DNA of 63,961 bases, the filler included, from Reclinomonas americana ATCC 50394 (lineage: Eukaryota), in the NCBI GenBank assembly GCA_048213135.1. It is 11 parts of 9 records of this genome, joined end to end, with 100 filler letters (N's around TTAATTAATTAA, not from the genome) between each part and the next. Parts side by side here need not be neighbours in the genome. Positions count along the whole stretch, not along the records: positions 35,833 to 40,628 come from AFZH01016529.1; positions 40,729 to 44,498 come from PS016044.1; 9 more parts are not named here. One strand, given 5' to 3'. The position numbers and the translations under genes were made by a program. Positions 12,278 to 48,960 of the stretch are shown one piece after another (the first letter of the stretch is position 1; the number at the start of each line of letters is the position of its first letter). Under the pieces are notes generated by a model, which was given only the letters and a program-made list of their open reading frames with translations, was not told where the DNA came from and did not search any database.

Positions 12278-12998
12278 NNNNNNNNNNNNNNNNNNNNNNN
12301 NNNNNNNNNNNNNNNNNNNNNNNNNNNNNNNNNNNNNNNNNNNNNNNNNNNNNNNNNNNNNNNNNNNNNNNNNNNNNNNNNNNNNNNNNNNNNNNNNNNN
12401 NNNNNNNNNNNNNNNNNNNNNNNNNNNNNNNNNNNNNNNNNNNNNNNNNNNNNNNNNNNNNNNNNNNNNNNNNNNNNNNNNNNNNNNNNNNNNNNNNNNN
12501 NNNNNNNNNNNNNNNNNNNNNNNNNNNNNNNNNNNNNNNNNNNNNNNNNNNNNNNNNNNNNNNNNNNNNNNNNNNNNNNNNNNNNNNNNNNNNNNNNNNN
12601 NNNNNNNNNNNNNNNNNNNNNNNNNNNNNNNNNNNNNNNNNNNNNNNNNNNNNNNNNNNNNNNNNNNNNNNNNNNNNNNNNNNNNNNNNNNNNNNNNNNN
12701 NNNNNNNNNNNNNNNNNNNNNNNNNNNNNNNNNNNNNNNNNNNNNNNNNNNNNNNNNNNNNNNNNNNNNNNNNNNNNNNNNNNNNNNNNNNNNNNNNNNN
12801 NNNNNNNNNNNNNNNNNNNNNNNNNNNNNNNNNNNNNNNNNNNNNNNNNNNNNNNNNNNNNNNNNNNNNNNNNNNNNNNNNNNNNNNNNNNNNNNNNNNN
12901 NNNNNNNNNNNNNNNNNNNNNNNNNNNNNNNNNNNNNNNNNNNNNNNNNNNNNNNNNNNNNNNNNNNNNNNNNNNNNNNNNNNNNNNNNNNNNNNNNN
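12278..12998. other. Assembly gap (Ns)
   Basis: Run of N. Confidence 1.
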
Positions 12999-15110
12999 CT
13001 GGGAGTTGGTGCGTGTGCATGCATTGTTGATTGCATTCTGCGTGTGCATTGGTGATTCATTCGTTGCTCTTTGACAGGTTGGTGACTTGAGTTCTGTGTA
13101 TTTCCGCGAGTCGGTGGGCGGTGTCGAGGGTCGCAGCAAGATTGCCGCGTTGCGTCTGTTTTCTCCATTGTTCCTCCTTTGCTGTTCTCTCTGTCTGACT
13201 CTCTGTGCAGGTTCGATCTCGACGAGTGCGTGGAGTTGTCTCTCTCTGTGAATTCAGTGTGTGTGCGCGCTGACTCCCGATTGCAGTACGCTGGTCCGCA
13301 CGCGCTCCGGCAACACGTTTGCGAAGAACGCCAGTGACTGGCAGTGGTTGTACCCGCAGGTGCGATACAGATGAATCGACCTGCTGCTGTCCACTCCTTG
13401 TCGTCGTGACAGGATGCCGGTGTCCACTCCTTCTCGTTGTCACGCACTGAGATGCCTGCTACTGTCCATTGCTTCTCCTTTTGACGCACAGACATGTCTT
13501 TTGCTGCCATTCTTTCTCGTCGTGACTGGACGATGTCTACTGCCAGTGTCCACTCCTTCTTTGTGTCACGACGACATCTCGCTTCTGCTGCCATTCTTTC
13601 TCGTTGTGGACGATATCTCGCTTTTGCTGCCAATTTTTCTTTTGTGTCACACAGACAACTCCCTGCTGCTGTCCACTCCTCGTCGTTGTGTCTCGCTGAA
13701 GTCTCGCTGCTGGTGTCGACTCCTTCCCGTTGTCACGCTGACAACTCTCTGCTGTCCACTCCTCCTCGTTGTGTCACGACGCTATCTCCCTGCAGATGCC
13801 CACTTCTCCTCGTTGTCGTCCTTCTCACTGTCACACGCCGATTACTCTCTTCTCTTGTCCACTCCTTCTCGTTTCCCGTGCCTGTCCACCCCTTCTCACC
13901 GCACCAACAGGTCGTCGGCAAGCTGCGCGAGCTGCACGATGAGGGCTACAAGCTGGTGATCATCAGCAACCAGAATGCCCTGTCGGCCGAGAAGAAGGGC
14001 GGCCAGTCCAAGTCCAAAGTCGCGGAGACGCACGGCCGCTTCGATCAGGTCATGGCCGGCATCGATCGCCCGATGCAGGCGTTCATGGCGATTGAGAAGG
14101 ACCGCTTCCGCAAGCCGTACACGGGCATCTGGGACTTGCTGAGTGCGCACCACAATGGCGGCGTACTCATCGACAAGGACGCCTCGTTTTTCGTCGGCGA
14201 CGCCGCCGGTCGCCCGGATGGGTGGAAGGTGCTGTGCTGGATGCACTCTGTGTACGTATCCCTTTCTCTCTCGATCTCACGTCATATACGCACACCACAG
14301 AGCGGCCGAAAGAAGGACTTTTCGTGCACCGATCGCAAGTTCGCTCTCAACGTGGGCATCAACTTCAAGACTCCCGAGGAGTTCTACCTGGGCGAGCAGC
14401 CAGTCGACTTTACATGGGACGGCTTCAACCCGCACTCGATTGACGAGTTGGAGGATCGTCACGTGCTGGCTGATGGCGGTCAGGTCGTTCGCCCGTCGCA
14501 GGAGGTCTGTGTCTTTGCACTCCTTGTCATGCAGCGAGAAACAGCCTTCGCTCACCCATCCCTTCCCCGTTCCCATAGATGGTCCTGATGGTCGGCTTCC
14601 CCGGCAGCGGCAAGAGCACGTTTGCGCGCCGTCACCTGCTGCCCGCCGGCTACGTGCACGTCAATCGCGACACGCTGAAGACGCCCGCCAAATGCCTGGC
14701 GGCGGCCGAGGCGGCACTCCAGGCCGGCAAGAGTGTGGTGGTCGACAACACGAACCCGTCGCGCGAGGCGCGCAGCTCGTACATTCGACTGGCCGACAAG
14801 CACTCGGTGCCGGTGCGCTGCTTCATCATGGAGGCCGACGAGGACTTGGCGCAGTTTCGTCTGCATCATTGCGTGGATTTTTCACTGTTGTTGATTTTTT
14901 TTTTGTTGCAGGCACATGAACATGTACCGCGAGGCGGTGACGAATGGTGAGCACAAGCACGTGCCGGGCATGGCGTATGGAGTCTACAAGAAGAGCTTCG
15001 AGGAGCCGGACCCGGCGGCCGAGCACATTGCCGAGGTCAAGGTCATCCGTTTTGTGCCGCAGTTCGACAGCGAGGAGCATCGCAAAATGTTCAAGATGTT
15101 CCACTGCTGA
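12999..15110 (+). CDS. PNKP: Bifunctional polynucleotide kinase 3'-phosphatase (5' end in gap)
   Basis: Spliced HAD motif KIAA|FDLD(D)|TLVRTRSG (exons 13078-13148, 13211-13225, 13287-13359). Also VIISNQ, RKP.TG, FFVGDAAGR, KKDFSCTDRKFA, kinase P-loop GFPGSGKST, HVNRD and VVVDNTN. Confidence 0.95.
13375..13895. repeat. Degenerate tandem repeat (about 35-50 nt unit) in PNKP intron
   Basis: Recurring 'ctgctgtccactccttctcgttgtcacg'-like units fill the 551-nt intron 13360-13910. Confidence 0.8.
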
Positions 15111-15369: not shown

Positions 15370-16044
15370 TTAGTTGAGCACGCACGACTCGTATGTTGGT
15401 ACTGCTCGCAAGAAAGAGCCAAGGAACGTGAGTATTTACACTTGCAGCAGTGCGACGAAAACAGGCGTGGTGACGAAACTCATGTACTTGATGTTGATCT
15501 GCGGGGAAGAGAGAGAGGGAGGGGGAACAACAGAGAGCACGGTCAGTGACTTTTGGTGTGCGCACACAGACGAAGCAAGGTGCGCATGACTCACGAAAGC
15601 ATCCTCGCCGCCATTGGTCTCCAGCAACTGCAATGTCTCGTCGATGAGGTCGCCGAGGTTGAGTCGCTTGCGCTGTCCGTATTCGATCGAGTCGCCAATG
15701 TTGCTGTTCTTGTTCTTGAAAAGGTTGAGCACCGGCAGGATCTGGCGGTAGTACGGCACCAGCGCCTCGCCAATCATCTCGCCACTCAGCACCAGTTGTT
15801 GCAGCACCTTCAGCACCGTGCAAATGATCTCCGGATCGCGTGTGTTCAACGCGGCTGTGTTGGGGAGAGAATGGAACATGAGAAGGCTGGCTGGCGCGGG
15901 CGCCGGCACATTCTCTCTCGTGTTACGCAACTCTTGATGGGGATGATGAGCTGTGGAATGGTGCGCAGCACCTTGTTGGAGCCTCGCTCCAACAGATCCA
16001 GGGTGCCCTGCACGGCCAAGAAGCGGTACGGCTCCTCCTTCTCA
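15370..16044 (-). CDS. PACRG: Parkin co-regulated protein (axonemal inner junction), 3' part
   Basis: [10 protein letters not shown]...[80 protein letters not shown]. Confidence 0.97.
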
Positions 16045-16088
16045 NNNNNNNNNNNNNNNNNNNNNNNNNNNNNNNNNNNNNNNNNNNN

Positions 16089-16100
16089 TTAATTAATTAA
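16089..16100. other. Artificial scaffold spacer TTAATTAATTAA flanked by Ns (also at about 23282, 35777, 40673, 44543, 48746, 52699, 55800, 59919, 62731)
   Basis: Identical 12-mer with stops in all six frames, always embedded in Ns. Confidence 0.97.
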
Positions 16101-16144
16101 NNNNNNNNNNNNNNNNNNNNNNNNNNNNNNNNNNNNNNNNNNNN

Positions 16145-23100: not shown

Positions 23101-23645
23101 TGTGTGTGCTTGTACGCGTGCCTCTGCATTGTGCTCACCACATTCGTAACACCAACACAGAGATCACATGTCGGAGGACTCGGGCGGTGTTGGCAGCACC
23201 GGCGGTGGTAGCAGCAGCGGGAACTGGTCCATGTCGANNNNNNNNNNNNNNNNNNNNNNNNNNNNNNNNNNNNNNNNNNNNTTAATTAATTAANNNNNNN
23301 NNNNNNNNNNNNNNNNNNNNNNNNNNNNNNNNNNNNNTCGCTGATTTGCATGAGCGGTTCAACGGCAAGAAGTGGGAGCGGTTCAATTCCGAAAAGGTGT
23401 GCGCCATCACGTTTGCACGCATCCAGGGCAAGAACAACCTGGTGCAGCATTTCCAGAATTCGAGTCTCCTGTTTGAGGAGGAGCAGTGCAGACCACTGCT
23501 CTTTAACGATGTCGGCGAGGAGGTGTGTGCATGACAGAGAACAAGAGTTGGTGTTGCTCAGTGTGCTCATTATTGTGTCTGCGCGCAGGAGGAATTCCCT
23601 GTTGGGCCTTACGCTCGCCGCCGCCGTGTGTCAACCGATCCGTGA
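20191..23645 (+). CDS. Mei2-like RNA-binding protein (RRM1, RRM2, RRM3); spans a gap
   Basis: EHPSRNLFVRNI..KHRGFVVVSFYDIRDA..IHYSIPKDNPSERDQNQGTLVVFNLD..HHRFVEFYDTR; RRM3 end FNGKKWERFNSEKVCAITFARIQGK..LVQHFQNSSLL. Confidence 0.93.
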
Positions 23646-27201: not shown

Positions 27202-30200
27202 ATGGGCGATCAGAACGCAGAGATCGCTGCGATTTTTACAGAGCATGATCGGCAGGAGTTCACCAGCACGTTCTTACAGGTGCGCGCGTGTGTGTGCGCA
27301 TGTGTGTGTAAGAGAGAGAAGGAAGAGAGCGCGAAAGAAAGCAGAGAGAGAAAGAGTGTGAGATTGCATTTGAAGTTTCTGAGAGATACAGATTGTGTGT
27401 GTGCACATGCGCGTGTGTGCGTGCCTACGTGTGAGAGAGCAAGCTAATATGCGCAGATACCACCTTCTCCCCTCACTTTGTCAGTCATGTGATATCGCGG
27501 CTCCACGCTCATTTCTTGATATGAAATCGCAGCTTGGCATTGTGGCACTCGGCTTATCTCTGATCTCGGCGTTGGTTCTGATGGTCGGTCTCAGTCGCGG
27601 TCGACTTCGTCATTTGCCACTGTTGCGCACTTTTTCTTCTTCTTCTCTCTCACTCACTCACAAGAGAACGATCTTTCTCATGTGTTGCTTGTAGCATGTT
27701 TGCGCGCATCATGGACGCCAAGACCTTCGCGCGATGGGCTCTCTTTTCCACGATTGTCGTGTGGTTCTTTCTGATCATTGCTCCGCCGGTGTTTCTCATT
27801 GCCTGGGGCGTGGTGGTCAGTCATTTTCTTTTCTTCTTCATGCGGTTGTGTGCGACTCAACTCTCTCCACCCACCACCAGACGGCGGCTCGTGTGAACCC
27901 GTATCTGATTGGTTTGACCATCATCCTGCTGTCGATTGGCACTGGCATCCTGTTCTTTGCCGTGCTGCGCTGGCGCCAGATGCGCTTCCTGTTGACCGGT
28001 ACGCGTGCTGCTCGTCTCGTCTCTCCCTTGCCTTGCCTTGCTCACTGACTGACTGACGGATGCGTGCGTAGCTTTCACGTGGTGGCTGCTGGTGCTCGGC
28101 CTCATGTGCTTCCTGATCTACGAGATCGTGGTCGTGTACACCATCAACGTGTTCACCTACATTGGTGCGTCGTCGGTGTGGCTCTCCTTCAACGCCATCT
28201 TTGTGGTGCTGATTGGCCACGAGTTTGAAAAGTGTTGCGTCTTCCCCTCCCCTTCCTCCTCCTCCTCCCACTGCCGGCCTTGGTGCACTCATTTCATTCG
28301 ATGCGCAGTGCACCTGAAGGACGTTGACACAATTCTGAACGAGAGCAACGTGAGTGGCGCCAGTGGCGCATCGCAGTACGGTCCACCGCAGTTCGTGTCG
28401 GCCATGTTCACGCGCTTCGGTCGGCTCAAGCCAGTGTTGCGTCTGCCGTGCCAATTGACTTAACGATTTCTCTTCACCAGCACGTCCTCACTTGTGCCTG
28501 AACACACGCAGCACGCGCATCATCATCTACTACATCATGGCCATTCTCGTCCTCGTCGGCTACATTGTGACCGTGCTGACTCAAGTCGACGACCGCGAGA
28601 CCGTGGTGACGGCCACTGTGGTCGCCATTATCGTTGTTGGTGAGTCCCGACAGCGATCTGTGAACCATGCTCCGTCTCTCTATCTCACTGCTTCTGTGAC
28701 CAGATATTTTGCTCTTTATGCGCTTCATTGCGCAGCGTCAGGCGGACCCGGTGCTGCTTTCGTGGAAGGCCATTGCGGTGCGAGTGGCACTCATCTTTTT
28801 GGGCCAGCGGTCAGTGACATGGTCTTTGTCGTCACCACCGTGATAATCACGAATTCATCTCTCTCCCCTCTCTGCTCTAGATACTACTTTGTCGCCCACA
28901 CCGTCGTCTTTATTGCGTTCGGGTGGTACCTGGTCACCGAGGCGATTCTGCGTCGCTACCCGAAGTACTCGCAGTCTCGCAACGAGATTGTGCTGGATGG
29001 CATGCAGCGAATCATGGAGGCCAACTCGCCGGCCGCTGGCACCGCCGCGGCTGCCGCGTGGAGTGACGCGGAGGCGGCAGGCGTGGGAGCGAGCAGTGCG
29101 GCAGCGGGCGCCAGTGACGATCCAAGCAGGTGAGGAGTGTCTGGTGAATAAGCTGACACCTGCGGACGGCTCATCGCACGCGCGACACAGACACGCGCCG
29201 TCTATCACGCCCGTTTCTCCTACTGCACGCCGCGCCGCGACGCCGACACCCATCTCGCAGCGGGTGTGTGCCGTCAGAGCGGTGTCGTTCGCTTACGTGT
29301 GTGCGTGTGTCGCTGACCCGTGATGGACGCAGTGGTATCTCTCGCCCGAGTTCGTACTGCTGTTGCTGGTGCTCGCTTTCGTCATTGAGATGATTGTGAC
29401 GGCACGAGTCGGCCACCTCGACAAGGTCCGCATTGTGGACTTGTACCACGAGCAGTGGCTTGTCGGCGTGTGTGGCATTGTGCGTGCAAATATGTTTCCC
29501 TCAACGCAGCAAGTCTGCAGTTTTCTCAATCACTTGCAGATTCTGGTGGCCGACTGGGCTTTTATCGTGTGGACAGCCATGGTGTTGCTGTCGACCAACT
29601 GGTGTGCCGGCATGACGGTGAGCATTCGACTCGCCACTCTCCGCTTTTGTAACGTGCCTCATCTTGCATCTTGCAGTTCCGTACATTTTTCGGTAGCGGC
29701 GCCGGCTGGTGCTTCTTCCTGTGCGAGGTCGCGATTGCCGGTCTGGGCCTGCTGGTTGTACTTGTCACGCGCTCGTACATTTTCCTCTTCAGCTCGATCT
29801 TTGCGTATCCCACTGGCCTCTTGTGCGCCTTTGCGTTGCACTGGTGGCGCGACAATCACTACAGTTGCGCCACATTTCGACATTGGCAAGTGCTTTTTTC
29901 TCTCTTCTCACGTCGCTGGAACGGCGCACAGATGTGCTACAAGAGCCCAAGTTCCGCAAGGAGCCGCATCGCGCTCGCAACTCATTCAGTGCCTTTTTGT
30001 GCTGCGGCCTCACTGGCGCCGACTACGGGGTTCGTGTCCACTGGCGTTGTGTATCCGCTCGGTTTATTGCTCACTTGTTTTGTCGCTGCAATCAGATGTT
30101 GTTTGTGCTCCTGCTCATCTGCGGTCTGCTGGTGGCGTGGGGCGGCGGCATTGCGGCAACCATTTATCGTTGGGTGTTGCTTGTCGTTGTTGTTGTGATA

Positions 30201-33200
30201 CTGCTTGCAGTCACAATCTGACGTTCTGTTGTCGACGCAGAGTCGTGGATTGGTTGGACCATTGTGGCTGTGCCGTTTGTCGTCGGAACCTCGGTGCGTC
30301 GTTTCTCTCTGCTTCCATCGTGTACGCCTTCCATGTTGATTCATTATCTCCCCCAAACAGATTCTTCCCATGGTCAAGTGGTATCACACGCTGAATGTGT
30401 CGCGCTCAATTCTTTTCGGCCTCGTCAGCGTTCTGCTTTTCGCCTTTATCTGGACTCTGTTGCGTCATCGTCGTGATGCGGGGACTCTTGCCGTCGGTGT
30501 CTGACATGTTGACGCACTCAGCTACATGGCCCTCATGTATACGCGCATCATTGATCGCAACGACAAGAGCGCCAGTCTGGCAATCCTCTTGGTTTACTTT
30601 TCGTACCCGACGCTGGTGCTGGCCATCAGTGCCTTTATCGTCTGGTGCGTGCATGGTGTACTTCTTCTTTTTTTTCTTGGTTGTCATTCAGCTGACACCC
30701 CATCCGCAGGCGCGAGAACCGCTGGAAGCTGACGAGTGTCGTCTTTTGGTGCCTCCTGCTGTGCGCACTTCTCGTTCTGGCCCTGGCCATTGCCGTCACG
30801 GTCGTGCTGAGTGTGGCAGCGGGTCTGGCGCTCTTTGGAGTGTTTGCGTTGTTGGTGGTGGCCGTCGTTGCGTGCGGGACTCAGACAAAATGTCGTGAAC
30901 TACTGAATAGAGAGGCTAACTGCCTGGGCGGCTGCTGGCGATAGGTGTCGATTGTCATCTGGGTGCGACACGATTTCCAGGCGCCCACTTTGCTGCGCCA
31001 GATCGTCGTCACCAGCGCACTGGTGCTGATTGCCGCCGGCATCGGTATTGGCTTTGCCGTGAATCAGGCGTTTGCCGGCTTTAGTGTGGCTTTCGGTGTG
31101 GCCTTTGTCGGTCTCCTGTTCCGTGGTGCACGCTACGTGCTCGATCGGTATGTGGGCCCTGCTGTATGCTCTCGCCTCCCGTCAACTATGTTGACAAAAA
31201 GTCCACACGCACAGGTACACGTTGAATCGCTTGTACTGCGTTTCGAGTCCATTCGTTGCGTGCTCCACATTTCGTCCTCCGCCACTGCGGCGCTAACGTT
31301 TGCTGGCACAGGTCTTCCCGCTGTTCAAGTACGACTCGACGAGCGACACGGTCAAGTCGTACAATCGCAGCATCAGCTCCCTTTGTTGCGTCTCTCTTGT
31401 GCGGTCCGAAGAAGCGCGGTCTCGTGGTGTTCACGTGTTGCCGCCAACTCAGACATGTCATTCTTCGTGCTGCTGTGGTGGGGTGCGGCGGCCACGGTGT
31501 TCCTCTCGCCTGCCTGGATCGGCATGGCCGTGGCGTCGCTGGCGGTGCTCCTGTGCTTCATCCTCACGCTCGACGCACTGCGCCGTCCCCAGGAGGCCTT
31601 TACCAGTGTGGCTGACTACGTGACACCCGCGCTCATTGCGCGTGCCCACGAAGAGGTGAATAGAGAGGTGTGCACACATATGTTGACCATTGATTGTCTG
31701 ACTGGCTCGACGCGGTGGTGTGTGTGCGTGTGCAGGCCGACAGTCGCTTCTCCGAGTTCCAGTTGAATCGACTGCACCCCGACATGGACGACCAACCGCA
31801 GCCACACGGTGCTTCGGGATCGACGGTGCCGGCCATGGGAGGCCACCCCATCAGTCCCACCAACATTGTGCTGAACGAGCCAGCCGACCAAGGACCGCGC
31901 GGTGCCGGTCCCGCACCGTATGTCGCACCTGCGAGCGAGGGACCGGTGCCAGCGAGCGAGTTGGAGCGACGCATCGGTGCCATGTCGCTGGGCTACAGAG
32001 AAGGCGACCATGCCAACTGGCTGCAGCTCCAGGAGTACAACCGCCTCATCAACGAGGCGCACAAGCAGGAGCAGCAGCGCATCGCTTACTTCCGTGTTGC
32101 GTTGGGGGTTCACCAACCAGCGTGTTTTTCTCCCTTGATGGCTTGTGCTGAATTCTCGTGAATAGTTGCATGTGCTGATGGCCGCCAGTGCCGCCCGTCG
32201 CGCCGACGAGGCCGAGTTCAATGAATTCGTCGGCCTGCAGATTCGCGAGTTGCAGGCGCAGCAGGATGCCGCCAATGCCGCCATTGTGGCTGTTTCGTGC
32301 TTCTTCTCTTTCTCTCGTGTATTTCGTGTTGAGTGCTGGTGGCTCACTGGTGAGAACACGCAGGCGGGTGACGACCCCACTGCACGACGCAACGCGGAAG
32401 CCTCGCGAGCGTTTTGCGAAAAGGCCATTCGCGTGTATCGTGACATTCAGACGGGCAAGCTGACGTTGCGCGCTACAGCCTATTGTTGTGGTGTCGACGA
32501 TTGACCGCTGACCATTCTTGTTGTTCTTGATTGTGTCGTGCAGTCGGGTCAGCGACCAGGATAACGCGCTCGTACGTCACGACTTCCGTGCGTTCAAGGT
32601 CAAGCGCGAGGCGGAGATTGCCGAGCAACGCCGTCGCAAGCGTGAGGACGAGGAGGCAGAGCGACAACGGTGAGTGTCTTTTTTTCCATGATATGTACTC
32701 GTGTGTGTAGCATTGGCTGAGCATGACCGTCAGTCGTGAGTTGGTGCGACGGCAGCGCGAGGAGGAAGAGCGCCGTCAGCGGGAAGAAATGATGCGCCTC
32801 GGCGGCGGTGGCGGCGGCGACGGTGGCGGTGTCTCACCGTCGGCTGTTGGCATGGCCGTGGCTGCGCAGGAGCAGCTCATTGCGCGCATGCGGCAGGAGT
32901 TCGACGCCATGCTGCGTAGCGAGCAGCAACGTCGTGACGAGGCCGAACAGAGGCGAGCTGCCGCAGAGACCGAACTTACGCGCCTGCGCAACGAGATCAG
33001 CGGAGCGCATGAGGACCACGGCACCGCGCAGAGCCGCATCGCCGAGCTGGAACGGCAGTTGCGCGAGGCCTCGGCCATCGCCTTGCACCTCGACCAGGAG
33101 GCGTCGGAGGCTCGTCAGTCGCTGCAAGCGAGTGAGCAACGCGCGGCTGATCTGGAGCGCCAGGTGATGGAGGGACGAGCGCGCCCCGCCGACGACGCCA

Positions 33201-36200
33201 ATCGGGCCATGCTGGAAGAGCTCACTGCGGCGCGCGATCGAGTTGCGTCTTGTGTCTCTATTGCTGTCAATCGATCCTTTCAGTGATGCTAATCGCATGA
33301 CAGGCCATGGACCAAGTGCGACAGTCCACAACGCAGCTGGAGCAGGAACGTGCACATTCGCAGTCACTGCAGCAGGAACTCAATACACTGCGCGCGCAAG
33401 CTTCGCGAAACAGCGACTCCAGTGCCAGTGTTCCTGCAGCCACGCAGCAGCAAATTCAGTTGCTGGAACGACAATTGCGTGCGGTGCGTGACTTCATGTG
33501 CAACACAGTCTGGTGTTGTGTGCTGACACGCATGTTTTCTCGTGTGGTTAGTCAACGGACCGTGCGGATCGGCTGCAGGCCGAAGTCTCCCAGCTGCACG
33601 ACGCTCTGCAGGCGACTCAGACGGAGCTGCACACGGCGCAGGACCGTCTGCATGCTGCACTGCAGGTATGCAGCACGCAACATGATTGGAGTGCATGGGG
33701 CTCACTGCTCACTATCTCTCTCTCACAGAACACGTCGGCTTCGACGGCGGAGATGGAGGCTGCCAAGCGTGCACAGGCAGAGGTAATATTTCACACTAGG
33801 TGATGACTTGCATCTGTGCGCTGACACTGCTCTGTGGTACTCATTGTGCAGGCGGAGCGTCGCATGGCCGCGGCCACTTCCAATCTCGAGGTGGAGCGCC
33901 GACGAGTGTTGGAGGCGAGTTGATGCACCAGTGCTTTCCTCTCGGTGGCCTCTCTTGTTCTCATGTCGCGCACTATTCAACAGTTGGAAAGTCAACTCGG
34001 CACCGCGCAAGCGACAGCACGCGAGGCCACTGCTCAGCTGCAACAGCTGCGCGTGCGCGCGGAGCGTGCCGAGGAAGAAGTGCGCAAGAGTCGGCAGGAG
34101 ATCGCCACGCGGGATGCGCGCATCACCGAGTTGCAAGAGGCCACGCAAAATGCCCGTCGCGACCTGGTTCTCGCGCAGCGCCGCATTGCGGAGCTTGAGG
34201 TGCTGTTGGCACACGCTTCGGCCGGTGGCGCAGTGGGCGGTGGTGGTGGCGGCGGTGGTGCACCTGCGTTGATTCCTGTGGCTCCAGTCATTAGTGGAGG
34301 TGGATTGCGTCCGCGTCGCGGCCCCACCATCGAGTCGATTATTGCCGAGTGCAAGTCGGCCGGCCGCAAGTGGCGCGACACGACATTTTCGTCAAACGAC
34401 TGCCTGCACATTAATCCGCGACGACCCTCCAAGAGTGCGTTGTGTCTTGCATTGCTTCCCTTTCGCGTGGCTGGTCTCTCACTGCAACACTCGCCACACT
34501 TGTGTTGCGCAGCGTACCAAGTGCGCGAATGGAAAGATCCGTCGTCAATTGCTGACACACCAGCCGTGTTTGTGGAGGCACCGACAACCGATGCGTTTGG
34601 ACCTGGCACTCGCGTCCGTCAAGGGGTTTGTCTTGTGCTGCCGGTGATTGATGTTGGCATGGATCGATTGTTTGACTGACTCGTGGTGTGTTGGCAGTCA
34701 CTCGGCGGTACTGTTCCCACATTGCACTGCTGTATTCATGACTGTGCAGAGTGACTTACATGTGCTTGTTTGCTTCCATGTGTGTCGCTGCGATTGTTGT
34801 TTGACGCAGAGTTGCGTCTCCTTGATTGCATGTCTTCTGTCTTGCATCACTGATGTCTCATCCCACCGCGATCTTGCATAGTTGCTACTTCCTCAGCGCA
34901 CTCTCGGTGAGTTTTGTCACCACATTCTTCTGCTGGTGTGCGTGCACGCTGCTGACCTTGTGCATTCTCATACAGGTACTCGGCAAGTACGGCGACCGCC
35001 TTCGCGACCTGTTCGTGGTCAACACGCGCCAGCAGATGCCTGGTGAGGAGAGCACGGATGTGGGCGGACCAGCGGTGTCGCTTGACGACTGCATCAAGTG
35101 GGGAGTGTGCGTAACTCTGGTAGCAGTCTGCTTCATCGTGACTTGACGCTGATCGACATGCATGCAGCTTCAACATCAAGTTCTACAAGGAGGGCAAGTG
35201 GGTGTCGGTGTTTGTGGACGACAGGTGAGATGCTGCATGCGTGTTGTCCTCACTGGCGCGCAGCCCACTCACACCCAAATACAGTTTGCCCACATTCAAC
35301 ATGCATCCGTCGTTTGGTCGCTCTGTGCGCGATGACGAGTTTTGGGTTTCGCTGCTGGAAAAGGTTTGCCGCGGTGCACTGGCGTTGATGCAGTGCCCCT
35401 GTTGTCGCTGACTGGAGTGAGTTGCAGGCGTACGCCAAGGTCCACGGCAGCTACGAAGCCATTGTCGGCGGTCAAGTGTCCAACGGTGCCCATATTTGCT
35501 CGTGTCGTTTTCTGATGGTTGTGGGGTACTCACATCCTGTTAATCAGCACTGGTGGATTTGACGGGCGGTGGCGGCACGCTGATCGACCTCACCGACACC
35601 AAGGTGAAGCTGGATGTGGACAGCGGGCATCTCTTTGATCAGCTGCTGCAGTACTACAAGGCAGGTCATCTCATTGGCGCCGGCTCGGTGGATGGCATGG
35701 GTCGCGGTGATGCGGCCACCGTGCGTGGTATCNNNNNNNNNNNNNNNNNNNNNNNNNNNNNNNNNNNNNNNNNNNNTTAATTAATTAANNNNNNNNNNNN
35801 NNNNNNNNNNNNNNNNNNNNNNNNNNNNNNNNACTGGTGAGCTGGCTGTCGACTGTGAATCGTTGACGCGCACTGCTGACTCACATGTTACGCGCAGCGC
35901 GAGTCGCAAGCGTTCTCCACGCATGTGACTTACGAAAACCACCCGATTGGCCTGAAACTGGTCTCCAAGCGCGGCAAGCGAGTGCAAAACGGTGTGTCAG
36001 CCATTGTCGTGCCGTGTTTTGTGATTTCGTTGTGCTGACTGGGAGTGATTTCGGTGCAGTGTACACGCGAGAGGTGGTGGCCACGAGTGGTTCCTTTGTT
36101 GCGTACACGAGAGGGCAAAGCGGGTAGTGGAGATCCATCGAAAACCAACTCATGTACACGCACACACAGATCAATTCGACACAAGTGAGCGTGGAGCTGG

Positions 36201-37731: not shown

Positions 37732-39957
37732 ATGGCAAACTTTGTCACGATTCCCTCTTCGTCTTCCTCCTCCTCCTCCGCGTCCTCGTGTGAGCTTGGT
37801 TCATGCGGGCTTGTGTGGCTGTGTGTGTGCATGGTGCTCGCGAGTGTCGTGTTTGTCGCTGTCCGTGAGCTGGCGCGATGGATGCTGCAGCATGTGTTGA
37901 TGCCCTCGGTGCCAAAGGGAACTGCACTGGCCACTGCTTTTCATAGGTGAGAGGCGAGAGAAAGATGGAGAGACAAGGGAGGGAATGAAGGAGGGCGGAC
38001 ATGGAAGAATGTCGTGTGTGGGAGAGAGAGTGTGTGACGCAACAAGGAGGTTCTTTGACTTGCAATGCTTTGTGTGATGACGTGTTTTTTGATTGCAGGT
38101 GCATGGCGAGTACAAAACAGTTTCCGGACGGCATTCGATTGCCTGCACGACATGCGGAGTTGACCAAGAGGTAATGCCCTCGTCATACTACAGTTGTCTT
38201 CCGCTGTGTGGGATATTCATCAATTTTTTCGGTAGATTTCTTCCGCCGCACTGGCGACTGATGCTCGAGTGGTTCCCGTCGTTTTGCGTGAAACACCGCT
38301 TCTCGTACATGCCGGGCATTGGGGCGTGTGTGGTGGCGCGCACGCGGTATATTGATGAGGAGGTGGAGCAGGCGTTGCGCGATCCGCGGCCCATGGCGTC
38401 GCTGCCGGAGCGCGAGGTCAAGTTTCGCCAGTTTGTGGTGTTGGGCGCGGGATTTGATACGCGGGGGTGGCAGTATGCGGAGGAGTCGCGGCGGGCGGGG
38501 GTGAAGTGGTTTGAGGGTGCGGGCGGAGGGGGAAGGGGGTAGGGGGGAGAGGGGGGAGAGGGGGAAGAGGGGGAAGGGAGGGCGGTAAGATGTGTTGTCT
38601 CTCACTCCTTCTCTCGCCAAGAGTGTGACGCAGGCTATGTTCCTTCAGACGTACTGCAGTGGTGTCTCTCACTCTTTCTCTTCTCGATTGTGTGGCCAAG
38701 AGTGTGAAGCAGTCTCTGTTCCTTCAGACGTACTGCAGTTTTGTCTCTCACTCTTTCTCTTCGCGATTGCGAAGCCAAGAGTGTGCGGCAGTCTCTGTGT
38801 TCACTAAGAAAGACGACGCAGTCACTGTTGTCTCTCACTCTTTCTCTTCTCGATTGTGTGTGGCTCGAGAGTGTGCAGTTGTCTTCGTGGTCACTCGGAA
38901 AGACGACGAATCGCTGCAGTGTCTGTCTCTCGCTCTTTCTCATCTCGATTGTGTGGCTCACATGTGAGCAGTAGTCTCCGTGATAACTCGAGACGACGGT
39001 GCACGCACTCCAGTGCCTATCTCTCTCTCTCTCTCTTTCTCTTCTCGAGAGTGTGCAGTGGTTGCAAGGCCTCTCGTGTCGCCCCGTTTGTCTCTCTCTC
39101 CTCTTCATCTCTGTAGATTCAGTCGTTTCTGTCTGCGTGCAGCTGAGCGTACAGCCATTCTCTTCCTCCTCTCTGTCTCACCCTCTGTCTCTCATGCCCA
39201 CCGCGCGCAGTGGACTTGGCGCCCATGCAAGAGTACAAGAAGCAACAGCTGACGCCGGAGGAGCTGCAGGTGTGTAGAAGACAAACACTCCGCCGTCACT
39301 CCGTGTTTCACTGACGCCCGCCCGCGCACAGATGGTCACCTTCATTCCGGTCGACTTCACCGCGGGTCAGTACGCACTGCGCGATGCGCTCGTCAACTGC
39401 CCATCGTTCGAGCAGAATGCACGCACGCTGTACATTTGGGAGGGCGTGACATACTACCTGAAGCCGGAGGAGGTCGATGCGGTGCTTGTCAGCCTGCGCC
39501 AGGTGTCGGGACCGCGCTCGGAGATTGTCTTCGATTTCGTGTGGCATACGGATATCATGCGCCCCGACCTACCGCCGCCAACACGCTATGGGTACGTGTA
39601 TAAAGCGTGCCTGTCTGCGGGGGGAAGGCCACTCGCTGATTCACTTTTCCCCTGATGCTTTCTGCAGTATGCGATTCCTCAACGAGGTCGTACGTCAGCG
39701 ATACGGCGAACCGCTGTTTTCCGGCATGCCCGACGGTTCGTGCAGCCAGCCTACCAGCTCCTCTGTGATGCCACCTCTCACGCCCTCGATGCCTCACATG
39801 CACAGGCAATCTGAGCACGTTCTTCGCTGATCGCGGATACCTCGTCATGCGCTGCGTGACGCCCGACGAGGCCCAGAAGCGCTACCTGACCGACAGCAGC
39901 GCCGGCATGTCAATCAAGCCGGTCAGTCTCAACTACGCCACTGTCTCACTCCTCTGA
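37732..39957 (+). CDS. SAM-dependent methyltransferase, LCM/Ppm1/TcmP family, with N-terminal TM
   Basis: TALATAFHR, ARTRYIDE, QFVVLGAGFDTR, WFE|VD, FIPVDF, TLYIWEGVTYYL, GEPLFSG. Confidence 0.9.
38595..39070. repeat. Degenerate minisatellite (about 65-90 nt unit) in the methyltransferase intron
   Basis: About 6 copies of 'gtctctcactctttctcttctcgattgtgtgg..agagtgtg..gcagt'. Confidence 0.85.
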
Positions 39958-40071
39958 CAAATCCTTCCCTCCTCTCTCTCTCTCTCCTTCCATGCCCTCC
40001 CTTCCAACGTCAATGAACACCGCGGAGGACTTTGTTGTGAGTTGTCCTCCGACTCAATCAATCGTACAAGA

Positions 40072-43000
40072 ATGGACGCAGAGCTCAGTCACCTTGTGTA
40101 CTTGGACTACAATGCATCGACGCCCATCTGCACAGCTGCACGCGATGCAATGCTTCCTTTCCTCGGAGCTTTCTTTGGCAATCCGAGCAGCTCACACGCC
40201 TTCGGAGTCGCACAAGTTCCTCTCTCTCTCACACACTCTCACTCTTGTGTGTGTGCAGTCTCTTACTCTCTGTGTGTCTTCTCAGAGAAAGGCGATTGAG
40301 AAAGCGCGACAACAGGTGGCCAGTGCGTTGCGAGTGACCGGAGGTCCCGATGAGATCATCTTCACCTCGGGAGGCAGTGAGAGCAACAACTATGCGATCA
40401 AGGGTGCAGTGATGCGGGCGAGGTGAGGGGCACAGTGATGAGAGAGAGAGGGGGAGGGAGGGAGGAGAGAGGGGGGAGAGAGAGAGAGAGAGAGACAGGT
40501 AGGGATGCAGGCAAGCAGACAAGCAGACAGTGCCTCAAAGACCACGCTTTCTTCCCTCTCTCTTCTCTCTCCCTGTTCCCCGCTGAAGAGCAAGGCAAGC
40601 AGTTAAGAAGATAGCCAAGCAGGGATGCNNNNNNNNNNNNNNNNNNNNNNNNNNNNNNNNNNNNNNNNNNNNTTAATTAATTAANNNNNNNNNNNNNNNN
40701 NNNNNNNNNNNNNNNNNNNNNNNNNNNNAGGCAGACTGCCTTACAGACATACAGGCAGGCAGGCAAACAGACAAGCAGACAGACAGACAGGCAGGCATGC
40801 AGACGAGCAGACATTACGACGAAGACCACTCATTCTTCCCCCTCACTCCCTTTGCCTCTCCTTCTCTCCTCGTTTGCCCTTCTCCCTGGAACAGCGCTCT
40901 GTACCTCAACAACGCAGGCGGTCACATTATTACGAGCAACGTGGAGCATCCGGCTGTGCTGGAGGTGTGTCGCGCACTTGAAAAATCCGTGCCAGCGTTC
41001 ACTGTGTCGTACGTGGAGGCCGATGAGAGTGGTCTCGTGTCGGCCGACGCAGTCATGCGAGCGGTGCGCGATGACACGCTGCTCATCACGATCATGCACG
41101 TCAACAATGAGGTCGGCACGGTGAACCCGATTGCGGAGATTTGTCGGCGCGTGAGGGAGCTGAATGCGGCGCAGCCTGGTCGCCGGGCGCCGGTGCTGGT
41201 GCACACGGATGCGGCGCAGTCTATTGGCAAAATCCCTACGTTTGTCGACGAGTTGGGCGTGGATCTGCTGTCGGTGTGCTCGCACAAGTTCTACGGACCG
41301 AAAGGTGTCGGGGCGCTGTACATTCGACGCGGGGTGCAGCTGGAGAAGCAGTTGCATGGAGGTGAGAGACTGTGTGTGTGCGTGAGAGCTGGTCACGGCC
41401 CTGAATGTCTCTGTGTGTGTGTGCAGCCAATCACGAGCGCAACATGAGACCAGGCACGGAGAATGTGTTGGAGATTGTCGGCATGGGTGCCGCCATCGAG
41501 GACATGGTGCGCAATCTCGACAAGAACGCAGCGCACATGCGATGCATGCGGGACGCACTGCACACGGCACTCGAGGCAGCGTTTCCGCCGCCCCTCACAC
41601 GCCTGAATGGCCACCCCACGGAGCGCCTGCCCAACACACTCAAGTTTCGTTTTCCAGCGATCATCTCGTTCCCTCTTCACTGCTGTTAGTTGTGACTTCT
41701 TCGCACCCCACGCAGCATCGGCTTCCGTAACGTGGAGGGCAGCTCGGTGCTGGATGCGTTGAGCGACACGCTGGCGGCGTCCGCTGGTGCCGCCTGTCAC
41801 AGTGGCGACGATGCCATCTCGTACGTGTTGCGCGCGATGCACGTGCCGGAGGAGTACTCTCGCGGCTCCTTGCGTCTGTCCACTGGCGTGCTGACCACGG
41901 AGGAGGAACTGGAGCGCATTATGCCCAAGTTCATCGAGGTGGTACGAGGACTGATGCCAAAGGAGGAGGCACATGACGGGGAGGAGGAGGAAGGGGAGGC
42001 GTGTGCGTTTCTGCATGCGGATTTGAAGTTGCGGCATCGCTGTGCCACAGTTGTGGTCTTCGCTTCCTCGAGCTGATGGTGTGTGGTGTGCAGGTCGATT
42101 CGACTCACCACCACCACCCACGGTCTGGGCTGTGGGTGCAAGCTGCGCCCGCAACTGCTGGAGCAGGTGTTGCGGAATCTGCCACCACCCTCCGACCCGA
42201 ACGTGCTGGTGGCCACCTCGACGGCAGACGACGCTGGCATCTACAAACTCAGCGATACGCTGGCCCTGGTGCAGACCGTTGACTTTTTCACACCCGTGGT
42301 CGACGATGCGTACATGTTTGGCGCCATTGCCGCCGCCAATGCCATTTCTGATGTGTGCGTACACTTGTGGCAGTGCATTCCCCTCGATACTGGTGCCAAC
42401 CACCTCTTCCTCCAGGTATGCCATGGGTGGCATTCCGCTGACGGCGCTGAATATCGTTGGTTTCCCGTCGTCTCGATTGCCGCTGGCGGTGCTGGAGGCG
42501 GTGTTGCGGGGCGCAGCAGACAAGGCCGCCGAAGCTGGCGTCTCCATTCTGGGTGGTGGGTGCTGTGCAAGCTGCAGTGCTTTCTATGGTGATGCTTATT
42601 GCGGGCAGGCCACTCGGTGGAGGACCTGGAACTCAAGTTTGGCATGGCGGTGACGGGAACAGTGCACCCGGATCGTGTGTGGTCGAATGCCACCATGGAG
42701 GCCAACGACGTGCTGATTCTGACAAAGCCACGTGCGTTTTTTTCAGCCCTTCTTCTTTGTGCTCTGTGTGTGCGAGACTCACGTGCTGTCGACAGTTGGA
42801 GTCGGCATTCTGAGCACGGCGGTGAAACGGCGAATGGTCGACGATAGCACGGCGCAGCTCGCCGCGCGGACCATGGCCCAGTTGAACAAGTACGCCGCCG
42901 AGTGTGTGCTGAAGACGCAACTCCGCGTCACTGTGCATGCGTGCACCGACGTGACGGTGAGAGAGTGTGCGTGTCGGCGGTGGTGTGATCCTCATCTGAT

Positions 43001-43490
43001 GTTGACTCTCAACAGGGATTCGGTCTGCTCGGCCACCTGCGCGAGATGGTGGGAGGCAGTCGTGCGCGGGCAGGTCACGAGCACCTGGTGTGTGAGTTGT
43101 ACACGTCGGCAGTCCCCTTCCTGCCGCACGTGGAGGAGCTCGCTGTCGGCAATGTGGCCATTCCGGGCGGCACTCGCGACAATCTCGCATACTCCGCCTC
43201 GAGCACCAACTTTGAGCCGAGTTGCGCCGCACGTGCAGCCGCTTGCTACTGACTCGATACTCACACACACTCCTTTTGGTGCAGGCATTCCCCAACACAT
43301 GCGCCTGATGCTGGCCGATTCGCAGACGTCGGGCGGTCTGCTGCTGTGCGTGTCTGGCGAGGATGTAGAGGCACTCGTCGACGAGCTGCGCAGTGTCACT
43401 GACGACGTCGCGTGTGTGATTGGGCGTGTGCGGAACGGCAGTCCCGACGAAGCACCTGTGCAGGTGCTCAGAGAAGCGCCCGCTGAATGA
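40072..43490 (+). CDS. Selenocysteine lyase/NifS-like domain fused to selenophosphate synthetase (SelD, Cys form)
   Basis: [62 protein letters not shown]. In-frame splice 42000/42094 gives [24 protein letters not shown], then [48 protein letters not shown]. Confidence 0.93.
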
Positions 43491-43515
43491 AGGAGACGGA
43501 AAGCAACACAATTGT

Positions 43516-46500
43516 TTATGAGCATGGACATAATCGGGTGGTGTGCGGGTGCTGACTCGTGCACTGCGGCACCTCCTCTGTGATGAGACACCGTTCTGTG
43601 GAGACACACACAAAAGGGGATGAGGAGGCAGGCTTCCACAGCACTGCAATCGCAGGGAGACGCACGATAGTTGCGGTCGCGTGATTCGGGCACATAGACG
43701 GGGATTTCAGTGCCCCATTCAAGGAAACAGCCTACAAGATGGTCGTGAGCGACGCAGCTCGTTTCGGCAAGCGTGCAACACAAAGTTCGTACCTCGCTGA
43801 CTGCCACACTCGAAGAACTCATACAACGTGTGGCAGTGGTTGATGTAATCAAAGCTCGACGACTCGCACGACAGGCCAACGTTTGCGCACGCTGCACACA
43901 CACACACAAGAATTAAAACACCCACCACGTCTCAAGAATTCAACGTCACACGCACCATTGACGCAGTTCTGATCCCGCTCCGCTCGCACAACTTGAATGT
44001 TCTCCAACGCCTTTTCCAAATCGTTGGCATACGTCTGTGTACCTGCGCGTGAGCCAACAATGCCACTGCCACTTCTCTTTCTCTCCAGTCTCCCACGGAA
44101 CTGGAACGTAGGGCGAGAGCGTGGCACTGGCCAGAATCAGGACGTGCTTGCCGTGCAAGTTGTAGAGGATCTGTGCGTGGCGGTGGTGCGCACGCGGTGT
44201 GGACCAGAGGCCGAGTGCACCGGCAATGCCCGCGAATGCAGGTTTGGCGTACGGAACCAGGAAGACGCCGGGTGCACGACTCTCCAGCGACTGGAAGTTG
44301 GAAAAGTTCGTCTCCAGCACCGTGGCCATCGAGAGCAGTTTGCGCAAGTCCCGTTCGTGTTCCTGCGAGAAGGGGGAGGTGGGGAAGGGGAAGGGAAAGG
44401 GGAAGGGGAAAGGGAGGAGGGGGGAGGGGAGAAGACCGAAGGGGGAAGACGGAAGGGGAAGACGGAAGGGGGAAGACTGAAGGGGGAAGACCGAAGGGNN
44501 NNNNNNNNNNNNNNNNNNNNNNNNNNNNNNNNNNNNNNNNNNTTAATTAATTAANNNNNNNNNNNNNNNNNNNNNNNNNNNNNNNNNNNNNNNNNNNNGG
44601 GGGAAGACCGAAGGAAGGCGAACGGGGAGAGAAGAAAGGGTCCATACCTGGAACAGCATACGAGAGACATCACCGAGATAGACGTCGGGCTTGTCGGCAA
44701 ACGCTACGTTGCGGAAGAAACGATCATACTCGGCATTGTTCACGTCTACTTGCCACAGGTTCAGAATGTGTCTGCTCGTGTACGCACGAGTCCAGCGACG
44801 CAACTGGTGCCTGTCTCGCCAATGTTGTAATTGCGTGAGATCTCTGGAACAACACACTGGCGTCCACGATTCACAGAGTCGATGCGCATGCCGTGGTCCC
44901 AGTGGTCGTTGGACCATGAGTTGCGAATCTGGATGAATGAAGACAGACAAGGTGTGAGCCACAGCACGATAGAGACGAGGTGAATGCTTTCGACTACCGA
45001 GGAGAGTCTTCGCATTACAAACCTCCATCCACACTTCACGACTGAGTATCCAACCGAGACCCGGGAAGAAGCTGGTTCTCCGCAACCGTGCCAGATTCTG
45101 CTCCACCAGATGGTTGAAGCCGTTGTCGTTCCACGTCGACACACACCACAGTGACGGATCGGCAGCCAGCAACGGCGCCAGCTGCTCGAAGAATTGCAGC
45201 AGATCAGGCGAGAACAACATGTCTGCACACAGTCGTGTATGAGAGAGATGGAAAAGACTGCGCTTTGCCCGCATACAAAGCCACCAACCGTCCTCGAGCA
45301 GAATGGCGTGCGTGTGCTTCTTTTGCACAAACACGCGATCGAGGGCCTCCCTGCACCACGCGCTCATGAGCGCAGCAAAAACATGGCTACACCCCACTTG
45401 CGCAACGCGATGACACGTACTTGTAATGCGCTGCAATGAACGCCGTGCCAGTCTCCTGCGCGCCCGGAAGGCGCACGTGATCGCGTTGCACGTGCACGAA
45501 ACTCGGGTTCGCGGCCTGCACCAGCGGCCCGATGCGCCGTCCGCGCCCATCCTCCGACACATACACCGTGATGTCTCCCACGAGGCGCACTTTGTTCAGA
45601 CTCTCCAACGTGCGCTGGAGGTACGTGGTGCGATCATACGTCAACACGATAACAGCGGCGTCCTTCAAGTACTTGAGCGATTGCTGTGCGATAGAGACAG
45701 GTCTGAGTAAAAACGACCAGCGTTCGTCACCGTGTGACGTGGAGAACGAAACTGGCGCCTTCCCGCTCTCAATGTACACACTATCGACCCTCTCAGCCGC
45801 CACCCATTCGCGCGTGCCCGGCAGCCGTCGTTCATGCGACGCCCGCACCAGATCCAAGTACGGCAGATACTCGGGAAAGTCTCGCTGCGATTGCGCCACC
45901 ACCTGCACCAACAGCAGAGTCAACACGCGCTGCACAATCTCTCAACGCGCTGCACAACTCGCACCATTCGCAGCTGCACGCCCTTGCCGGGCGGGAACAA
46001 CTTCTTCGGCATCGCATCCGGTCGGATCAACACTGGCTGTGTGACAGCTGCGCCCTCCTCCTCACCACCTGCATCATCCTCATCCCCACCACTCGACGAC
46101 GACACTGGCGATTCCACAGGCGGTTCTGGCTCCACAGAAGGCGGTTCCAGATCCAGCGGATTCTGCTCACACCAACGATTAAGCGGTGGTGGATTTCTCG
46201 CGCGCCTATCCTCAATTGCAAACTGACCGATTCCTCTGTTGTCTCGCTCACTGGTGGAGGAGGTGGAGGTGCAGGTCGTCTCTTCTTCGACTTGCCACCA
46301 CGTCGTTTCCTTCGCTGTTTTTGTGGTGTTGGCGACTGTTCCTGTTCCTCTCGTCGTCGACGAATGTCATCCAACTGTGCTGCGTATCGATCAATGCGCT
46401 GACGGAAGGCCGCAGTGCCGGGAATGTCAGCGGAGGCTGTCTGTGACTCCTCCTCCTGTGTGTCACCTCCACTTGTGTTATTGTTGTTGCGTGTGAGCTG

Positions 46501-48559: not shown

Positions 48560-48960
48560 AGCTTCTGTCTCGAGTCTGCTGATCTCGATCTTCATGCAGG
48601 AGAAGCACTTCAAAATAGTATCTGCCCTGCGTGGATGATCTGTCTCGAGTCTGTTGATCGTGAGCTTGTGAGACCAGGTGATGAAGGAGGAGGAGAAGAG
48701 GNNNNNNNNNNNNNNNNNNNNNNNNNNNNNNNNNNNNNNNNNNNNTTAATTAATTAANNNNNNNNNNNNNNNNNNNNNNNNNNNNNNNNNNNNNNNNNNN
48801 NGGAGAAGAAGATCTGTGTTTAGTATCAGAGGGTAGCAGTCTTTTGTATCGTTGGTTTGGCATTTTTTGTCTCGAGTCTGTGAGTCAATTGTCGTGCCTG
48901 CTGAGAAGGGCAGAGAAAGTACTGTCCTCCTTGCCTTGTCTCGAGTCTGTTGATCGTGAA
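48560..48960. repeat. Short dispersed repeat 'tgtctcgagtctgttgatc' on both sides of a gap
   Basis: Copies near 48566, 48641, 48868 and 48936. Confidence 0.6.

Follow-up and report, generated by a model that had tools for sequence, protein, structure and literature searches.

Introduction

Fusions of a NifS-type enzyme with selenophosphate synthetase (SPS, SelD) have been published for Geobacter sp. FRC-32, where the synthetase carries selenocysteine (Sec), and for Caldithrix abyssi, Naegleria gruberi and Acanthamoeba castellanii (PMC4561486). The fusions of N. gruberi and A. castellanii are described as Cys forms with small introns and are explained by the transfer of a bacterial gene that was already fused (PMC4561486, Supplement S2). 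A fusion of SPS and NifS in Spironucleus salmonicida (PMC3916229; repeated in PMC6006210) was read as a Sec lyase feeding the SPS and was thought to have come from bacteria; Caldithrix abyssi was the one further holder that could be named in 2014 (PMC3916229). According to the same account, the S. salmonicida genome holds tRNA-Sec and four Sec enzymes, and the fusion is its identified selenophosphate synthetase (PMC3916229). Here, a gene of this kind is described from Reclinomonas americana ATCC 50394 (assembly GCA_048213135.1). It lies in a stretch of 63,961 nucleotides (nt), the whole of which was analyzed and is called the window, and it is predicted to encode a NifS-SelD fusion protein.

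The same two activities are carried by two polypeptides, SCLY and SEPHS2, in T. brucei and human (PMC7595633, PMC3266270), whereas one polypeptide would carry both here. Group I NifS-type enzymes are described as loading sulfur or selenium on a cysteine in a mobile segment, and direct delivery of selenium to selenophosphate synthetase was proposed for the mobile Cys segment of human selenocysteine lyase (SCL) (PMC3266270). For T. brucei, a complex of SCLY and SEPHS2 has been measured, which requires the N-terminal region of SEPHS2 that bears the catalytic Cys and Lys (PMC7595633). Channelling of selenium between fused halves was already the reading given for S. salmonicida (PMC3916229) and in Supplement S2 of PMC4561486. 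Architecture, bacterial origin and channelling had thus all appeared in print by 2014-2015, and the gene reported here is a further member of this group.

Results

The gene and the junction of its halves

The reading favored by the evidence below, with a probability of about 0.85, is one nuclear gene of 11 exons for a bifunctional NifS-SelD protein of 781 amino acids (aa), which descends from a fused prokaryotic gene and may work by handing selenium over from Sec to selenophosphate. The 11 exons, separated by GT-AG introns, run on the + strand from 40072 to 43490 and give a predicted coding sequence of 2346 nt with no internal stop. The start codon at 40072 is the first in-frame ATG downstream of an in-frame stop at 39955-57, and the frame closes with TGA at 43488-43490. 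All ten introns begin with GT and end with AG, their GC content is 0.54, and nine of them span 53-93 nt, while intron 2 reaches 472 nt because an artificial linker of the assembly lies inside it.

Profile scans were run exon by exon. Coverage of the profiles is consecutive and complete, with exons 1-5 matching NifS (TIGR03402 positions 1-371 of 379) and exons 6-11 matching SelD (positions 1-346). Exon 6 alone reaches 112 bits to TIGR00476, for which the whole-protein cut-off is 125. Matches to the NCBIfam model TIGR04369 (oxidoreductase/SelD-related fusion) are weak and partial, with about 21 bits where the cut-off is 700.

A first-pass annotation of the window had reported a pyridoxal phosphate (PLP) enzyme without a stop ahead of intron 5 and a splice that joins an acidic linker to SelD, and both were found as described. 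The NifS frame is open to the GT donor at 42001, and removal of intron 5 is predicted to join the acidic linker in frame to a SelD start reading SIRLTTTT...GCGCK. If the intron were left unspliced, 25 more codons would be read before a TGA at 42074-76, where the annotation had placed it approximately. The annotation also held that the SelD half has no starting Met of its own; its first Met is residue 74 of this half, past the catalytic loop and downstream of the catalytic Cys and Lys. Alignment of the SelD half with the solved 347-aa chain 3u0o begins at residue 5 of that chain, and the half therefore retains the whole N-terminal catalytic loop. At the Sec position stands a TGT codon (Cys430) within the motif G-C-G-C-K (residues 429-433), so that Cys in place of Sec was read correctly, and the motifs YLDYNA, EHPAV, RPGTEN and GAACHS were likewise located at residues 10, 111, 257 and 346. 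Splicing of intron 5, and with it a single mRNA for both halves, is predicted, with indirect support from the missing Met of the SelD half and from the continuous ORFs (open reading frames) of relatives.

Conservation among prokaryotic fusions

The predicted protein aligns with prokaryotic fusions over nearly its whole length. Against a 732-aa prokaryotic fusion (P0097), BLASTP returned a single segment covering residues 9-766 at 53.9% identity, and 22 more of the long proteins found in the first search align in the same way. After the second search, full-length collinear fusions accounted for 113 of the 235 proteins retrieved. Those of Caldithrix abyssi (P0012), Zixibacteria (P0029), KSB1 (P0122) and Thorarchaeota (P0398) are collinear with the 781-aa protein from end to end at 49-55% identity, and prokaryotic fusions share with it the G-C-x-C-K signature and the position of the linker. 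In a multiple alignment, both the place of the linker and a similar linker length were common to 15 prokaryotic fusions and the 781-aa protein. The fusion claimed by the first-pass annotation is thus borne out by collinearity with more than 100 fusions that are single open reading frames (ORFs).

An alignment of 60 fusions (A2) contained 110 invariant columns, 109 of which are kept here, with a change from Leu to Met in the remaining one. Conserved residues include the PLP lysine Lys225, Cys349, the Cys-x-Cys-Lys of SelD, Asp462, Asp480, Asn499, Asp503 and Asp643, and the columns of Cys349 and His350 are invariant in the 60 fusions. Asp462, Asp480, Asn499 and Asp503 presumably belong to the ATP and metal site of the SelD half. 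The gene differs from the prokaryotic fusions, which are uninterrupted single ORFs of about 732-756 aa, by its 10 introns and its acidic linker, and the protein has small insertions relative to them, among them one following residue 185 and one following residue 655.

Fusions of this type had been regarded in the first-pass annotation as sporadic in a few bacteria and amoeboid protists. They turned out not to be rare, as 234 fusion proteins of at least 650 aa were retrieved. Holders occur in many bacterial phyla and in Thorarchaeota, and among eukaryotes in Heterolobosea and Metamonada. Among 80 kept loci from GTDB, 13 match both halves, and 12 of these are one ORF of 648-756 aa with both profiles, while the thirteenth (L025) has NifS and SelD as separate genes. 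Prediction of a complex between the two halves (A2; P0130 residues 25-418 against 430-788) gave 0.00 in a run without controls, a value that speaks neither for nor against binding.

Comparison with eukaryotic fusions and phylogeny

As far as the published description of the N. gruberi and A. castellanii fusions allows a comparison, the gene resembles them in its N-terminal NifS, its C-terminal SPS, the Cys at the Sec position and several small introns. The fusion of the diplomonad S. salmonicida, also known from description, joins the same two enzymes, but its NifS-like part is described at the C-terminal end (PMC3916229). NADH-dehydrogenase-like-SPS and methyltransferase-SPS fusions of protists and bacteria also combine a Cys-form SPS with an N-terminal extension but differ in the partner domain (PMC4561486).

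A profile search recovered full-length fusions from three heteroloboseans, Naegleria lovaniensis (919 aa), N. fowleri (951 aa) and Willaertia magna (833 aa), and from Chilomastix cuspidata (814 aa; EukProt entry). A further group of fusions (P0238, P0387, P0388 and P0391) spans 819-825 aa. Identity of the 781-aa protein to the Naegleria, Willaertia, Chilomastix and P0238-group fusions is 41-46%, with 42% to that of N. lovaniensis (P0241) and 41% to that of Chilomastix, a metamonad. The gene is not the Naegleria copy, given an identity of 42% to fusions of the Naegleria type and the AT-rich genomes of Naegleria. The closest of the matches, P0130, is encoded by one ORF of 788 aa on a contig of 2,735 nt and is 56.7% identical over 772 columns. 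It shares with the 781-aa protein the TTTT before the loop, the G-C-G-C-K motif and extra residues at three places. P0130 and the P0238 group have eukaryote-like extensions and insertions, and all of them are single ORFs, on contigs that measure about 2.6-6.9 kb.

A quick maximum-likelihood tree was built from 47 rows and 738 columns, with rows picked from about 230 fusions as the named ones, divergent representatives and the nearest matches. The 781-aa protein pairs with P0130 (Shimodaira-Hasegawa-like approximate likelihood ratio test [SH-aLRT] 99), and the heteroloboseans form a clade of their own (100). The branch leading to Chilomastix is very long, and 15 of 44 inner branches are unresolved. 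A clade of all eukaryotic fusions was not recovered in the free tree, the backbone of which is weak. When the 781-aa protein, P0130 and the three heteroloboseans were constrained to group together, the tree scored 12.98 log-likelihood units above the free tree (approximately unbiased test, p-AU 0.71). The constrained tree is not worse, and therefore a single eukaryotic clade is not rejected; it is not established either, because the group was chosen after the tree had been viewed and because of the long branches.

Five of the fusion proteins (P0398, P0399, P0405, P0421 and P0428) carry the label Candidatus Thorarchaeota, which are Asgard archaea. In the quick tree they fall with Anaerolineae and Eisenbacteria, apart from the eukaryotic fusions. 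A 2024 paper on the Asgard selenoproteome uses none of the words fusion, fused, NifS or cysteine desulfurase (PMC11227280).

Origin of the gene and its integration into the host genome

Both halves have their nearest relatives among prokaryotic fusions. The 120 best matches to exon 3 (NifS) are all prokaryote-like at 52-63% identity, with fusions making up 24 of them. Among the 120 best matches to exon 6 (SelD), at 55-74% identity, 102 carry both PF00266 and PF00586 by manual count. Named sources of the matches are Zixibacteria, KSB1, Calditrichia, Caldithrix abyssi, Bacteroidales, Acidobacteria, Marinimicrobia, Eisenbacteria, Chloroflexi and Thorarchaeota.

Against solved chains, the SelD half scored best with 3u0o (82.6 bits), which we take to be E. 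coli SelD, followed by human SEPHS1 (36.1 bits) and 5l16, a putative selenophosphate synthetase (31.5 bits). Judged by these scores, the SelD half is of bacterial type. Features of the eukaryotic SPS2 lineage are missing, as the codon is TGT for Cys, 3u0o outscores the eukaryotic chains, and no selenocysteine insertion sequence (SECIS) was matched in Rfam at E-values up to 1 in 39000-44498, where only sub-threshold microRNA (miRNA)-like matches on GA/CT repeats appeared. The NifS half scored 125 bits with IscS, 112.6 with NFS1, 106 with human SCL and 46-58 with SufS/CsdB-type chains, by which it is classed as group I IscS/NifS type and not as animal-type SCLY.

The N-terminal domain had been called SCL-like in the first-pass annotation, which is right as regards the presence of the motifs but not as regards kinship with animal-type SCLY, since EHPAV and GAACHS are hallmarks of the NifS subfamily and IscS outscores SCLY. 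The mammalian EHDSI, which the annotation had set against EHPAV, fits the wild-type codons that can be deduced from the printed D146K primer (PMC3266270). Animal SCL has Asp146 and Val256 where Pro113 and Cys222 stand here, Cys222 occupying the position of human Val256. Among 197 related stand-alone NifS proteins, 142 have EH-P, and the search pattern matched the loop in 88, of which 62 have Cys-His. On these counts, EH-P and Cys-His are traits of the NifS subfamily.

As both halves are nearest to prokaryotic fusions, the gene was acquired already fused. Horizontal transfer of a fused prokaryotic gene, followed by intron gain and adoption of the host base composition, is supported as far as similarity goes, in line with what the first-pass annotation had proposed. 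The GC content at third codon positions (GC3) is 0.738, compared with 0.665-0.729 in six neighboring ORFs, and the codon-frequency correlation is 0.77; the GC content of the window is 57.6%. The contig with exons 1-2 also carries a gene for RPL35A and one for a methyltransferase of the LCM family, and other genes in the window encode PNKP, PACRG, an RRM protein, a neurobeachin-like protein, GNT-I and a Na/H exchanger. Location in a eukaryotic genome, as annotated, agrees with the ten introns, the neighbor-like GC3 and these eukaryotic genes.

Exon structure, assembly and neighboring genes

Coordinates of exons, selected introns, catalytic residues and assembly linkers are collected in Table 1.

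Table 1. Features of the NifS-SelD gene and artificial linkers of the assembly, in positions of the window
Feature	Coordinates	Strand	Description
Exon 1	40072..40215	+	ATG, NifS start, YLDYNA; TIGR03402 positions 1-38
Exon 2	40286..40422	+	NifS; TIGR03402 positions 42-81, E 7.6e-11
Intron 2	40423..40894	+	472 nt; linker 40629-40728 plus GA/CT-rich repeats
Exon 3	40895..41361	+	NifS core; PF00266 E 2.2e-32; TIGR03402 positions 82-222, E 1.6e-47
Exon 3 residues	40947-49; 41286-88	+	His112 (40947-49), Pro113 (EHPAV); PLP lysine Lys225 (41286-88)
Exon 4	41427..41643	+	NifS, RPGTEN; TIGR03402 positions 225-291
Exon 5	41716..42000	+	NifS end, Cys349 (41795-97), His350, then acidic linker; TIGR03402 positions 294-371 of 379
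Intron 5	42001..42093	+	93 nt, GT..AG, NifS/SelD junction; TGA 42074-76 in frame if retained
Exon 6	42094..42354	+	SelD N-terminus, Gly-rich loop; TIGR00476 positions 1-87, E 2.8e-32
Exon 6 residues	42131-33; 42140-42		Cys430 (TGT 42131-33, Sec position), Cys432, Lys433 (42140-42), Asp462, Asp480, Asn499, Asp503
Exon 7	42416..42555	+	SelD AIRS N-terminal domain; TIGR00476 positions 89-134; PF00586
Exon 8	42609..42731	+	SelD; TIGR00476 positions 136-175
Exon 9	42796..42956	+	SelD, ends at Asp643 of DVTGFG; TIGR00476 positions 177-225
Exon 10	43016..43220	+	SelD; TIGR00476 positions 226-279 of 311
Exon 11	43285..43490	+	SelD C-terminus, stop; NF002098 positions 289-346 of 347; PF02769
Linkers	16045-16144, 23238-23337, 35733-35832, 40629-40728, 44499-44598, 48702-48801, 52655-52754, 55756-55855, 59875-59974, 62687-62786		

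Contigs about 3-12 kb long are strung together in the window, and gene order over the linkers rests on scaffolding. Its joins are one run of 721 N (12278-12998) and ten artificial linkers, each composed of N44, TTAATTAATTAA and N44. One such linker falls in intron 2 and places exons 1-2 on another contig than exons 3-11, while the NifS-SelD junction lies inside one contig (40729-44498). Coverage of the NifS profile continues unbroken from exon 2 to exon 3 over this linker, so no exon is missing, and the loss of an exon there was ruled out. Similar (CAGA/CAGG)n and CT-rich sequence flanks the linker on both sides, as judged by eye, and these repeats may be the reason for the assembly break. The GA-rich and CT-rich stretches of intron 2 (40430-40587 and 40729-40894) can pair, and they gave about two dozen matches to miRNA families, all far below threshold, the best being MIR156 with 37.8 bits against a gathering score of 62.

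Upstream of the fusion, the LCM-family methyltransferase gene extends over 38093-39957 (+), with PF04072 matched at 38093-38539 and 39278-39652 and a TGA at 39955-57. This stop lies 114 nt before the ATG of the fusion and in the same reading frame. A triple fusion of LCM, NifS and SelD was considered and rejected, as the sole in-frame candidate acceptor ends in GAG, compared with CAG in the ten introns (by eye), and there is no SECIS in the region searched that could allow recoding of the stop.

Elsewhere in the window, a gene for PNKP was found at 13485-14947 (+), with a PNK3P domain (E 1.9e-39) and, in the ORF that follows, an AAA_33 kinase domain (E 9.9e-22), and an exon of PACRG at 15439-16041 (-) (PF10274, E 9e-33). 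PACRG is an axonemal protein, and because its gene is present in the window, the organism probably builds flagella or cilia. Acanthamoeba is without flagella, and the PACRG gene argues against it as the source, though the GC content of 57.6% would fit. Between about 25000 and 36000, the scanned ORFs of at least 70 aa had no Pfam match at an E-value of 1e-5 (1e-3 for long ORFs). Long frames occur in this part regardless, such as one of 356 aa at 29324-30391 (+), and they could be lineage-specific genes or products of the high GC content.

Selenium machinery in the window

The first-pass annotation had suggested a genome search for tRNA-Sec and further selenium machinery. Within the 64-kb window, such a search found none, which says little about the genome as a whole. 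No tRNA gene, and hence no tRNA-Sec gene, was detected in the window, and Rfam returned no match at gathering threshold over its whole length. No selenium-machinery family of Pfam was matched in 50 ORFs, mostly of at least 200 aa, and in 450 of 463 ORFs of 70-199 aa, with 13 ORFs in 60148-61765 omitted from the scan.

Discussion

Proposed function

The N-terminal half would be a group I PLP-dependent selenocysteine lyase/cysteine desulfurase, from which a linker of about 20 residues leads into the N-terminal catalytic loop of a Cys-form SelD. The lyase half would move selenium from free selenocysteine onto Cys349 as a sulfoselenide. The selenium could then be handed to the Gly-rich loop of SelD (Cys430/Lys433) without release of free selenide, and SelD would use it with ATP to form selenophosphate for the synthesis of selenocysteine. 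Such channelling between the halves, suggested by analogy, fits the T. brucei SCLY-SEPHS2 complex, because the linker tethers the C-terminus of NifS to the SelD N-terminal loop equivalent to the region on which that complex depends.

Evidence on selenium specificity comes from human SCL, in which Asp146 is the determinant, while His389 and Val256 alone did not set specificity (PMC3266270). Group I enzymes of lower organisms are described as generally taking both Sec and Cys (PMC3266270). The residue after the catalytic Cys is His350 here, and His is found at this place in 220 of 234 fusions, the search pattern having matched none of the other 14.

Weighing the alternatives

Several observations weigh against a dedicated Sec-recycling enzyme made as one product. 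The position of Asp146 is taken by Pro113, as it is by Pro in 231 of 234 fusions, and with this determinant absent the NifS half may use cysteine as well, or instead. Nearly all fusion-bearing species are described as having a second SPS, so that the fused form may lack a full SPS role (PMC4561486). Neighbors of the fusion are selenium-related at only 2 of 12 prokaryotic loci, and there is no common operon partner. The two are YedF after the fusion in a member of the Caldisericaceae (L001; 6232-6564, +) and MnmH before it in a member of the Lentimicrobiaceae (L008; 26-1063, +), not selA or selB. To these is added the lack of any other selenium-pathway gene, tRNA-Sec or SECIS in the window, with the reservation on the whole genome given above. 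Pro113, the broad substrate range of group I enzymes, the second SPS and the nature of the neighbors would suit a protein that is fused but does not recycle Sec, acting as a general cysteine desulfurase or making selenophosphate for tRNA selenouridine, a selenium cofactor or detoxification. This is nevertheless unlikely, as the residue after the catalytic Cys is the His of Sec-specific SCLs and not the Thr or Ala of non-specific enzymes, and as the fusion of S. salmonicida is the synthetase identified in a genome with Sec machinery. A last point of this kind concerns intron 5, the length of which (93 nt) is divisible by three and exceeds that of the other eight linker-free introns; with an in-frame stop 25 codons in, its retention would yield a free-standing NifS. 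If it were often retained, or if an alternative poly(A) site were used, the gene would have two products, mainly free NifS, with the fusion as a minor or regulated form. We consider this distinctly improbable. The ends of intron 5 (GTGTGC...TGCAG) resemble those of the other introns, and the relatives have a continuous ORF over the NifS-SelD junction. Moreover, the SelD half could not be translated alone with its catalytic loop, yet every invariant SelD column is kept, which argues for its expression within the fusion.

The remaining alternatives concern how the gene arose and whether it is real. An intron at the junction could be the relic of an intergenic spacer, as would be expected if NifS and SelD genes had been fused independently in this eukaryote, for instance by intergenic loss. 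Against such an origin stand the proximity of both halves to prokaryotic fusions, the agreement in domain order, linker position and linker length, and the alignment of the whole protein in one segment, which together make it very improbable. The makeup of the window from short contigs joined by linkers, one of them inside the gene, might raise the suspicion of a mis-joined scaffold, bacterial contamination or a pseudogene. This is hardly credible, since the NifS-SelD junction lies in one contig and profile coverage is unbroken over the linker, while ten spliceosomal introns and a host-like GC3 exclude a bacterial contaminant, and an intact frame with 109 of 110 invariant columns kept speaks against a dead gene. 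A single bifunctional gene of fused prokaryotic ancestry is therefore preferred.

Implications

The finding opens no new question, and the gene marks the genome as that of a likely selenium user. By hard-wiring a Sec lyase to a selenophosphate synthetase, the fusion argues for a hand-over of selenium from enzyme to enzyme as opposed to the release of toxic selenide. A bolder view, which we hold to be rather doubtful, is that the eukaryotic NifS-SelD genes stem from one early acquisition and that intron 5 might additionally act as a splice switch between free NifS and the fused enzyme. If one early acquisition were true, the flagellate that carries the gene of the window would add a new, deeply branching lineage to an old eukaryotic enzyme of selenium recycling. 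With one more intron-bearing copy, in a flagellate that is unrelated, the known eukaryotic range of the fusion becomes wider, and there is an extra taxon for deciding between one and several acquisitions.

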